Sequence record: DRR723986_9379
Direction: 5' to 3' (one strand)
DNA: 51,482 bases
Position 1 is the first letter of the stretch, and each line of letters begins with the position of its first letter. Positions 8,851-11,563 of the stretch are shown here, piece after piece. The position numbers and the translations under genes were made by a program. The notes under the pieces were generated by a model that was not told the DNA's origin, did no database searches, and saw only the letters and a list, made by a program, of their open reading frames with translations.

Positions 8851-9999
8851 GTGATGGAAAATTTCGTCGTTTCGGCAAGAAAATACAGACCGGCAGATTT
8901 TAAGAGCGTAGTAGGACAGCAGCATATCACGACCACGCTCCAGAATGCCATAAAAAACAATCACTTAGCTCAGGCTTTTTTGTTTTGTGGTCCACGTGGG
9001 GTGGGTAAGACTACCTGTGCGCGTATCCTTGCCAAGACAATCAACTGCGAAGATCTTCAGGCTGACTTCGAAGCTTGCGGTAAATGCGAATCCTGCGTTT
9101 CTTTCCAAAACAACAGTTCCTTCAATATCTACGAGCTCGATGCTGCTTCGAACAACTCCGTGGATGATATCCGTAATCTGGTAGATCAAGTACGCTATGC
9201 TCCGCAAAAAGGGCAGTATAAAGTCTATATCATTGATGAGGTTCACATGCTTTCCAATCAGGCTTTTAATGCCTTTTTGAAGACTTTGGAGGAGCCTCCT
9301 AAGTATGCCATTTTTATTTTGGCAACCACAGAGAAGCATAAAATTATCCCTACTATTCTTTCTCGTTGTCAGATTTTTGATTTCAATAGAATTCAGATCA
9401 AAGACATTTCGGGTCATTTGCAATATATCGCGGAAAAGGAAAAAGTGGATTATGAGGAAGAAGCGCTTAGACTTATTGCCACCAAAGCAGATGGCGCGCT
9501 TCGGGATGCACTTTCTATGTTTGATTTGATTGTGACTTATTCCGCTGGGAAAAAAGTGACCTATCATGAGACCATAGGAAATCTTCATATTCTGGATTAT
9601 GACTACTATTTCAAAGTTTTGGATGCTTTGGTCTCTGAGGATCTTTCTCAGGTTTTATTGATTTTTGACGAGATCCTGAAGAAAGGTTTTGATGGGCATA
9701 ATTTTATTGTTGGACTTTGCGAGCACTTACGTGACTTGTTAGTGGCCAAAGATCCTGCTACTATAGAATTGATAGAGGTGTCAGAGTCTGCTAAAGAACG
9801 CTATTTGCAACAAACAGAAGCGGCTTCTGCTTCATTTTTACTTTCTTCATTGAACATCGCAAATCAATGCGATATCCATTATAAGACTTCAAAGAATCAG
9901 CGCTTGCATGTGGAGTTGGCTCTGATGAAAATGGCGAAGCTTCCTCAAGCATTTCGCCTTTCTATGATGGCAGCAGAGGATGCAAAAAAAAAAGCCTGA
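8851..9999 (+). CDS. dnaX: DNA polymerase III subunit gamma/tau, N-terminal (gamma-length) reading frame
   Basis: SARKYRP, GPRGVGKTT, zinc-site cysteines, ELDAASNNSVDDIR, IIDEVHMLS and SRC motifs. Start is GTG 8851 or ATG 8854. Ends at the A10 run followed by GCC TGA. Confidence 0.97.
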   Translation: MMENFVVSARKYRPADFKSVVGQQHITTTLQNAIKNNHLAQAFLFCGPRGVGKTTCARILAKTINCEDLQADFEACGKCESCVSFQNNSSFNIYELDAASNNSVDDIRNLVDQVRYAPQKGQYKVYIIDEVHMLSNQAFNAFLKTLEEPPKYAIFILATTEKHKIIPTILSRCQIFDFNRIQIKDISGHLQYIAEKEKVDYEEEALRLIATKADGALRDALSMFDLIVTYSAGKKVTYHETIGNLHILDYDYYFKVLDALVSEDLSQVLLIFDEILKKGFDGHNFIVGLCEHLRDLLVAKDPATIELIEVSESAKERYLQQTEAASASFLLSSLNIANQCDIHYKTSKNQRLHVELALMKMAKLPQAFRLSMMAAEDAKKKA

Positions 10000-10574
10000 C
10001 AGGGGAAGCCCCTGAACCAGTAAAAGAATCAATTGCCTTACCCATATCTTCTAGTTCTGCAAAACCTAGCTCTTTGCATAAGACTATTTCTATTCCAAAA
10101 AACCTCGGGCATACCAAACAGTTAGCTGAGCAAAAGGCTAAAGATGAACTTATCCAAGCCAGATCTAAGGTAAGTGAAGAGGTCGTTGAAGTAGAAATTG
10201 AAGGGAGAGATCTTACTCAAAGTATCTTAGATGAAGTCTTTCCAAAGGTAAAAGAACATTTTCAGCAGCTTGGGAAAAGTATGGAATTGGCGATTCTAGG
10301 TGATTCTATTAAAATGAATTCTGATACGGTAATCCTTGAGGTGATGGGGCACGTGCAAGAAGAACTTGCATTGAAGATGAAGCCTGAATTAGTTCGAGTA
10401 GTCCGGGAATTTGGCTCAGTCAATCATTTTAAAGTAGAAATTGAAATAAAAGAAGAGCTGGAATCAGAACGGAACAAACTTTATACGAGCACCGATAAAT
10501 TCAATTTTTTAAAAGAAAAGCACGCTGCATTGGCAGAGTTTCAGCGTAGGTTTGGACTGGAAACAGATTTCTAA
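9984..10574 (+). CDS. dnaX: Probable DnaX tau C-terminal extension in the -1 frame (ORF track 10074-10574 extended back to the A10 run)
   Basis: The -1 frame is open from 9984 (KKKSLTGEAPEPVKESIALPISSSSAKPSSLHK...) to 10574. It has a Pro/Ser-rich linker and ends KLYTSTDKFNFLKEKHAALAEFQRRFGLE, resembling Bacteroidota DnaX C-termini. Confidence 0.8.
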   Translation, partial: KKKSLTGEAPEPVKESIALPISSSSAKPSSLHKTISIPKNLGHTKQLAEQKAKDELIQARSKVSEEVVEVEIEGRDLTQSILDEVFPKVKEHFQQLGKSMELAILGDSIKMNSDTVILEVMGHVQEELALKMKPELVRVVREFGSVNHFKVEIEIKEELESERNKLYTSTDKFNFLKEKHAALAEFQRRFGLETDF

Positions 10575-11563
10575 AAGTCAAGTGAAATCCCAAAGTTGAT
10601 TAGATTTTGCAGTTGCACTGCTTGTCTGGACGTCCCGTCATCTTGTTTGATAAACACCTCCTCATCATAGATTAGCACGGTTTCTATTCGAGTGGAAATA
10701 AATTTATTCACCTGCATTCTGATCACAGATTTGAAATTGACAACCATATTTCCAAATACCTCATAGTTTGAGAAAAGATTGATGTCAGATTTCCAGGTGA
10801 CATTTTTCATTAATTGGATGTCTGTCACAGAAGCCGCAAGCGAAACCCCAGCTTCAGCTCGAACATTTTCCCCTGGTACTACTCCGAATGCACCAGCGCG
10901 ACTCAGTGAATCATCCAATACAATCGTAAATCTACCTGTGAAAGGGGAGAGTATTACCGAAAGCTTACTTTTGTCTTTATAGGTTTTTCGGTAGTTAAGA
11001 CCCGTGGAAGATTGTACATAGCCAGGAGAAAGTAAGTCGGATATTTTTGTTCGGATTTCCACATCACTTCCCGCTGGTCTGGAAAATTTGTAACCAGCAA
11101 GCAGCTGTGTCCTTGCATCTAATTGAGTGGATAAGTAGAAAAATTCAGAAAGCTCCCGACCATAATTACTGACAAAAGTGAAGTTATCATTAGTTTTTCT
11201 GGTTTTGAAATCTCTATCATCTTGTCGGTTGAACCCAAGACTTACAGTAAGCTGAGTATCCCAAACCTTATTATCTTTTTTGTAATTAGCATAAAGAGTC
11301 AAGCCGGAGTTCATTGCAAAAGTACTTGCGCCACCCGCAGCCCAATTTGACAAAGTGACTTGCTGAATATTTAGGTTATAATTGCCTCCTGTTTTCCAGA
11401 AAATTTCCTTTACTGGCTCTTCTACAAATAGTGAATCTCCAAGCATCAATAAAGTATCTCCATTAATGAGGACAGTATCAGGAATGTATTGCCTGTCCTG
11501 AGCCTGCAAAGTTTGGCCGAGGCATACTAGAAGTAATCCAAAAATTAGGAGATATTTTGACAT
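10571..11563 (-). CDS. DUF3078-family outer membrane beta-barrel protein
   Basis: Signal peptide, QVTLSNWAAGG motif, RKTNDNF, C-terminal Phe. Confidence 0.85.
   Translation of the reverse strand: MSKYLLIFGLLLVCLGQTLQAQDRQYIPDTVLINGDTLLMLGDSLFVEEPVKEIFWKTGGNYNLNIQQVTLSNWAAGGASTFAMNSGLTLYANYKKDNKVWDTQLTVSLGFNRQDDRDFKTRKTNDNFTFVSNYGRELSEFFYLSTQLDARTQLLAGYKFSRPAGSDVEIRTKISDLLSPGYVQSSTGLNYRKTYKDKSKLSVILSPFTGRFTIVLDDSLSRAGAFGVVPGENVRAEAGVSLAASVTDIQLMKNVTWKSDINLFSNYEVFGNMVVNFKSVIRMQVNKFISTRIETVLIYDEEVFIKQDDGTSRQAVQLQNLINFGISLDF

Follow-up and report, generated by a model that had tools for sequence, protein, structure and literature searches.

The stretch of DNA analysed here (51,482 nt, record DRR723986_9379), to which we refer as the window, contains a dnaX gene that is divided between two overlapping reading frames (Table 1). 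Sequence comparison assigns the source organism to Algoriphagus (Cyclobacteriaceae, Cytophagales), with A. winogradskyi DSM 15360 as the nearest record; the C part, the product of the downstream frame, is 99% identical there. The upstream ORF is taken to represent DnaX domains I-III, i.e. the gamma form, because Pfam detected DNA_pol3_delta2 (1.4e-47), the DnaX ATPase lid (DNAX_ATPase_lid) and gamma domain III (DNA_pol3_gamma3) in its product. The same N part covers positions 1-365 of NCBIfam NF011531, a Bacteroidota-type DnaX model of 614 positions, at 5e-218. Since relatives align from residue 2 onwards, ATG 8854 is preferred as the start codon and is probably the true one, which would yield a gamma protein of 381 residues.

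Table 1 Features of the dnaX locus in the window.
Feature	Position	Strand	Description and basis
dnaX zero-frame ORF, predicted gamma form	8851..9999	+	382 aa from GTG 8851; DnaX domains I-III; ORF list, Pfam, NCBIfam
A10 slippery run, putative recoding site	9984..9993	+	encodes KKK; sequence; conserved in Algoriphagus
Zero-frame stop TGA	9997..9999	+	ends gamma one codon past the run; sequence; same place in 58 Algoriphagus loci
-1-frame extension	9993..10574	+	193 aa and stop; Pro/Ser-rich linker and predicted tau C-terminal domain; no in-frame stop; NF011531
Hairpin CAGGGG-aag-CCCCTG	10000..10014	+	6 nt past the run; local, not conserved; sequence, folding
+1-frame stop TGA	10013..10015	+	19 nt past the run; would end the products of third-frame mRNAs; sequence

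The -1-frame ORF is assigned to the linker and the C-terminal domain of tau on the basis of its relatives. Its product matches the end of the same NCBIfam model (positions 452-613 of 614, 3.9e-10), aligns in tblastn searches with the C-terminal ends of DnaX proteins from other Cytophagales families in which a single ORF encodes 598-619 aa, and has the C-terminal motif YT..(D/E)KF.FL.EK.PAL....FGLE.DF that is common to an alignment of 35 sequences. Pfam contained no family for the C part at E ≤ 0.01, nor did it assign one to the C-terminal ends of two relatives with a single ORF; a profile of 35 C parts had no match among PDB sequences at E ≤ 10, and a Foldseek comparison of the C part with the PDB gave nothing at E ≤ 0.001. 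In an AlphaFold model of the C part (pLDDT 72, core about 79-89), residues 75-154 form a small alpha/beta domain. This domain superimposes on DnaA domain I with a middling Z of 8.0 (rmsd 2.7, 75 aligned residues) and on DciA with equally middling Z values of 6.8 and 6.3, while its match to residues 521-591 of E. coli tau (5fku_E) is weaker, again middling (Z 4.6, rmsd 3.3, 70 aligned residues). DnaA domain I, DciA and tau domain V have a KH-like fold in common. The modelled fold is consistent with a tau domain V-like, Pol III alpha-binding module, with scores that fall short of proof.

At the junction (9976-9999) the zero frame reads GAG GAT GCA AAA AAA AAA GCC TGA. An earlier note, made from the letters of the window alone, had described this run of ten A's at 9984-9993 and the stop that ends the zero frame at 382 aa, and had proposed that the -1 frame stays open to 10574 and continues the protein to about 574 residues with a linker and a DnaX-like C-terminus. 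All of these coordinates proved right. From position 9993 the -1 frame encodes SLTGEAPEPVK... and meets its first stop, TAA, at 10572-10574, so that the predicted fused DnaX comprises 381 + 193 = 574 aa. An A_AAA_AAA heptamer fits the zero frame at 9984-9990 and again at 9987-9993. Upstream of the run, separated from it by 4 nt, lies a GAGG sequence (9976-9979) that doubles as part of the codons for a conserved Glu-Asp/Glu pair; in E. coli dnaX the Shine-Dalgarno-like stimulator has a spacing of about 10 nt, and the GAGG of the window sits closer. The dnaX A10 is the only A run of at least nine residues on either strand of the 51 kb; dinucleotide shuffles gave 9.0 ± 4.5 matches. The dnaX run exceeds chance expectation. 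The nearest genome (5 Mb) contains about 18 places with an A run of A10 or longer.

The arrangement was followed through Algoriphagus in a set of 58 loci including the window, which correspond to 54 distinct C-part sequences since two collections overlap. The run consists of exactly ten A's in 57 of the 58 loci, the C part lies in the -1 frame in every one of them, and the zero frame always ends one codon past the run (TGA in 53 loci, TAG in 5); a stop in the +1 frame follows 7-28 nt past the run (median 11.5). The sole deviating locus belongs to A. halophilus SOCE003 (L050), where the run is A7 and the frames are unchanged; unless a long-read homopolymer error accounts for it, seven A's are few for polymerase slippage to work efficiently. 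The first A of the run belongs to a variable codon (GCA, TCA, ACA, CCA, GTA or ATA), and the residue before KKK is accordingly Ala, Ser, Thr, Pro, Val or Ile. Because this codon changes its residue yet always keeps its final A, and because all three lysine codons are invariably AAA, selection on the run appears to act on nucleotides rather than on residues.

Two alternative explanations of the split gene have to be considered at this point. The homopolymer could have been assembled or sequenced wrongly, or the population could be polymorphic in its DNA (A10/A11 phase variation), the true gene being a single ORF; homopolymers are error-prone, one relative has A7, and a few of the genomes sampled below have A9 or A11. 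We regard this as extremely unlikely. The A10 with its frame offset was found in many independent assemblies of Algoriphagus, complete genomes among them, and the zero-frame stop directly past the run is conserved as well. The earlier note had suggested a check of raw reads for A10 against A11; Logan contigs assembled from two further read sets, at depths of 149 and 4.7, span the run without an indel, although rare variants could be hidden in them. By all these comparisons the split dnaX gene is genuine and conserved and not an assembly error.

It is likewise very improbable that the downstream ORF is translated separately, so that the cell would contain gamma and a free C-terminal protein and no fused tau. 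Gene callers do predict a protein of 127-200 aa, and TTG 10074 is a possible start codon in the window. The peptide from the run to 10074 (SLT..PEP.KEPIPLP..K.S.LQKTISIPK) is, however, conserved and shows coding-type substitutions. Pairwise differences at the three codon positions of the -1 frame average 0.34/0.17/0.44 in the first 81 nt past the run and 0.20/0.12/0.52 beyond these 81 nt; position 2 of the -1 frame is thus the least variable one directly past the run. In 7 of 17 distinct close relatives ATG, GTG and TTG are absent from the first 40 codons of the -1 frame. Because of this substitution pattern and of the relatives that lack a start codon, the -1 frame is most plausibly entered at the run, without a start of its own. 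Moreover, the equivalent region belongs to a single ORF in other families. In the Pol III holoenzyme tau tethers the polymerase cores to the clamp loader, and a detached polymerase-binding domain would forfeit this tethering role.

The check by alignment of Cytophagales dnaX genes that the earlier note had suggested was carried out and had a mixed outcome, in that the A run and the stop turned out to be conserved and the hairpin did not. The N part of dnaX was found in 248 of 251 Cytophagales genomes. Among the 150 matches listed, with 101 others outside this count, the ORF lengths form two groups with none between, a short one of 376-445 aa (82 ORFs) and a long one of 557-815 aa (68 ORFs); at least two of the short frames end at contig ends. 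The gamma/tau boundary was surveyed in 60 hand-picked and mutually related genomes of 16 families, for which reason the following counts are descriptive rather than statistical. An A run of at least seven residues is present at the boundary in 57 of the 60 genomes (48 with A10, 4 with A9, 3 with A11 and 2 with A7) and is missing in three. It is found in genes with gamma as the default product and in genes with tau as the default product alike: 34 genomes are gamma-default with an open -1 frame, 24, including one that a contig end truncates, are tau-default, and two are odd. One of the odd loci has all frames closed within 102 nt (G155), and in the other only the +1 frame is open (G087). Of the 55 loci whose run comprises at least nine A's, 53 have precisely one open frame. 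Among 106 non-tau frames, 99 meet a stop within 18 nt; the corresponding value for off-frames in the coding region beyond is 36%. In 41 loci the open frame matches the C-part profile, and this is frame 0 in genes of tau length, the -1 frame in the others and never the +1 frame.

The open +1 frame of G087 (L084) was not retained as a +1 case, as no frame matched the C-part profile within 450 nt. G210 and G198, with frames of 412-422 aa, were not retained as gamma-default genes, their frames being cut by contig ends.

Both polarities occur inside 8 of the 16 sampled families, and two members of one genus, G184 with A9 and G074 with A10, have the same upstream sequence and opposite polarity. These observations speak for flips of the polarity. 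The proposition that A10 is an ancestral and near-universal gamma/tau switch of the Cytophagales, in which the default frame would be almost neutral and would flip time and again, is in our estimate about equally likely to be right or wrong. If it is true, polymerase slippage on the tract would be near 50% throughout the Cytophagales, and the essential tau of many of them would be made only from 'erroneous' transcripts. A literature search found no survey of how frequently dnaX polarity is reversed.

Past the run the window contains the GC-rich hairpin of Table 1, located six nucleotides from the A's exactly as the earlier note had stated. Its proposed role as a stimulator of frameshifting did not hold up. 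The hairpin is present in the window but not unusual (z = -0.81 for the local 86-nt fold and -1.62 for the 50 nt past the run). Apart from the window, only the A. winogradskyi genome has it intact, and the next relatives already have mismatches in it. When 54 distinct split loci were folded, the 50 nt past the run did no better than shuffles, with a mean z of -0.48 and values below -2 in 4 of the 54. A conserved stem-loop 5-9 nt past the heptamer was found neither among the Algoriphagus relatives nor in the 54 split loci. With an occurrence in two genomes only and no general downstream structure, the hairpin was rejected as a conserved frameshift stimulator; it is probably incidental and stands outside the mechanism.

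We consider it likely, from the comparative data, that dnaX, an essential gene of the clamp loader, harbours a programmed recoding site at which tau is obtained by RNA polymerase slippage of the Thermus type on A10. In such a mechanism the RNA polymerase would slip on the A10/T10 tract and produce mRNAs with 9, 10, 11, 12 and further numbers of A's. Transcripts with 10 (or 10 ± 3n) A's would be decoded to gamma, whereas those with 11 (8, 14 and so on) would bring the downstream frame into register and give the 574-aa tau. Third-frame mRNAs would reach a stop after seven more codons and yield a gamma-like protein. This would be the mechanism of Thermus thermophilus dnaX, except that the register in the genome is shifted by a single base. 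The earlier note had assigned gamma to plain decoding and tau to a one-base slip at A10, and this division is supported by the conservation of a layout that is not an error; it had left the choice between a ribosomal shift, slippage by one additional A, or both, and of these the comparative evidence favours slippage and places the ribosomal shift second.

Alternatively, tau could arise mainly by -1 ribosomal frameshifting on A_AAA_AAA, aided in the window by the hairpin, which would be the E. coli mechanism with the products reversed. We judge this to be improbable as the main route, though clearly less so than the two explanations rejected above. The zero frame holds a perfect A_AAA_AAA heptamer in the correct register, and in the window genome the GC-rich hairpin follows at the classic spacing of 6 nt; both points speak against polymerase slippage as well, as does the A7 of A. 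halophilus SOCE003. According to Atkins et al. 2016 (PMC5009743), tau of such genes is described as 'being derived from frameshifting', and a Chlorobium candidate with E. coli-like signals is named there. On the other hand, the hairpin is missing from all relatives but one and no general structure follows the run. A heptamer would be enough for the ribosome, yet exactly ten A's are kept, and they are kept likewise in tau-default genes. The third frame, which is irrelevant to a -1 shift, also closes fast. Furthermore, A_AAA_AAA is reported to be less shift-prone than A_AAA_AAG in E. coli (PMC5009743). We therefore rank polymerase slippage before ribosomal frameshifting, because the A10 exceeds what a heptamer needs and both non-tau frames close rapidly, and because the same run is retained in either polarity while the hairpin is not conserved. 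Ribosomes that slip by -1 on A_AAA_AAA could make a share of the tau, or even most of it, and the same protein would result by both routes.

The dnaX gene of E. coli uses a -1 ribosomal frameshift at A_AAA_AAG that is stimulated by an upstream Shine-Dalgarno-like element and a downstream stem-loop. The window shares with it the gene, the boundary, the common N-terminus of two products and an in-frame A-rich slippery heptamer. In E. coli, however, the product of the frameshift is the short gamma and the stem-loop is conserved, whereas the hairpin of the window is not; the run of the window also differs in that ten A's precede the G. Closer to the window is dnaX of T. thermophilus, in which slippage on A9 generates mRNAs in all three frames and stops are located nearby in both non-tau frames (Larsen et al. 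2000, cited after PMC1088944 and PMC5009743). The window resembles this gene in having an A run at the gamma/tau boundary and near stops in both non-tau frames, the zero-frame stop being 3 nt and the +1-frame stop 19 nt past the run. The two differ in that tau of Thermus is genomic and gamma comes from slipped mRNAs, while the window is reversed, has A10 instead of A9 and is a case of presumed slippage. Tau as the genomic zero frame, the Thermus polarity, is accordingly not the state of the window; among the 60 Cytophagales genomes in the sample, 24 have it. In mxiE of Shigella flexneri the longer product requires that a non-templated nucleotide be inserted at a homopolymer run (PMC1088944). 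The two overlapping ORFs of mxiE are comparable to those of the window; the gene is another one and its mRNA run consists of U and not of A.

The arrangement itself is not new, contrary to what the earlier note had implied, as an 'inverted' dnaX was published in 2013. Antonov et al. 2013 (NAR, PMC3711429) described 17 two-ORF dnaX genes from 12 genera with a -1 shift at the DNA level, of which nine have A10 and none was annotated in RefSeq. The runs were aligned to that of Thermus and transcriptional realignment was proposed (PMC3711429), which, together with the A9 of T. thermophilus, provides the precedent for polymerase slippage at the A10 of the window. Atkins et al. 2016 repeat the two-ORF dnaX genes and point out that at an efficiency of about 50% a change of one nucleotide swaps the roles of the two frames (PMC5009743). 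As in the window, gamma of the genes of Antonov et al. ends right past the site and their tau depends on a -1 change in the DNA, and we see no difference in kind: domains I-III are followed by a stop, the tau C-terminus lies in the -1 frame and the A10 at the junction is conserved. No Bacteroidota genus name was found in the main text or in supplement 2 of that paper. In the literature retrieved by our search, Algoriphagus is not linked to a split dnaX, and the co-mention of Algoriphagus and dnaX there concerns, to judge by title and abstract, another subject. Because the arrangement and its proposed mechanism have been in print since 2013, the window adds little as a discovery. Mildly new are the generality of the A10 switch in the Cytophagales and the differences in polarity among relatives.

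For the annotation of genomes the consequences are practical. Tau is absent from the predicted proteomes of Algoriphagus and of many other Cytophagales, and its C part is filed as 'hypothetical protein'. Gene callers as well as completeness and essential-gene analyses should join both ORFs at A10. The gene would be another example of an essential protein that depends on a non-standard read-out, and the Cytophagales offer a natural series of both polarities for the measurement of slippage. The earlier note had expected that annotation pipelines would split the gene, and this is the case: NCBI lists the downstream ORF as 'hypothetical protein' in many Algoriphagus species, with calls of 127-200 aa. 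A search for fused proteins of at least 339 aa that include the C part found none at E ≤ 1e-5, which is weak evidence for such splitting. Some UniRef entries for this ORF are named 'DNA polymerase-3 subunit gamma/tau'.

The polarity of the dnaX junction is reversed within a single genus by a one-base difference. Two loci of genus g14, L109 (genome G184) and L110 (genome G074), are identical in the sequence upstream of the run and differ in polarity, i.e. in whether the plain genomic frame ends just after the A run (gamma-default) or continues through it as a single long frame (tau-default). An assembly error in one of the two loci may account for this difference.

Features at the dnaX junction of two g14 loci and downstream of tau in the window
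Feature	Position in window	Strand	Run and next base	Default product	Length	Remark
L109 (G184)			A9+G	gamma	405 aa	
L110 (G074)			A10+C	tau	699 aa	
Convergent ORF	10571-11563	-			330 aa	signal-peptide-like start

The dnaX junction of Algoriphagus halophilus SOCE003 (L050, complete genome) has A7, not A10; its frames are the same as elsewhere and the run is three A's shorter, which represents either a true shortening to the bare A_AAA_AAA heptamer or a homopolymer error of long-read sequencing. At the locus of genome G087 (L084) the +1 frame is the only open frame after A10, and a profile built from the C parts of tau of relatives found no match in any frame within 450 nt of sequence. At the locus of genome G155 (L074) all three frames are closed within 102 nt of the run. 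The same profile matches farther downstream in the -1 frame, beyond the point where all frames have closed, which points to either an error or another break.

A Shine-Dalgarno-like GAGG is located at 9976-9979 of the window, 4 nt upstream of the A run, and is retained in most relatives. It doubles as codons for a conserved Glu-Asp/Glu, and for this reason the sequence alone is no guide to its role. Shine-Dalgarno pairing is generally little used by Bacteroidota ribosomes.

Residues 75-154 of the -1-frame product (P0001, window 9993-10571), the C part of tau, adopt an alpha/beta fold in the predicted structure. This predicted model comes closest to DnaA domain I and to DciA, at Z values of 6.3-8.0; its likeness to domain V of E. 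coli tau, the Pol III alpha-binding domain, is weak (Z 4.6). We take the fold class of the model to be KH-like, a fold that is presumably common to the matched domains. Some orthologues of P0001 carry the Pfam tag PF28557 in the database.

The convergent ORF downstream of tau ends with a four-base overlap with the tau stop codon region, and this overlap leaves no space for a terminator between both genes. Beyond dnaX, about 17 runs of ten or more A/T are present in the 5 Mb nearest genome (G001; about 18 places altogether), some of which may be further slippage sites or may be intergenic.
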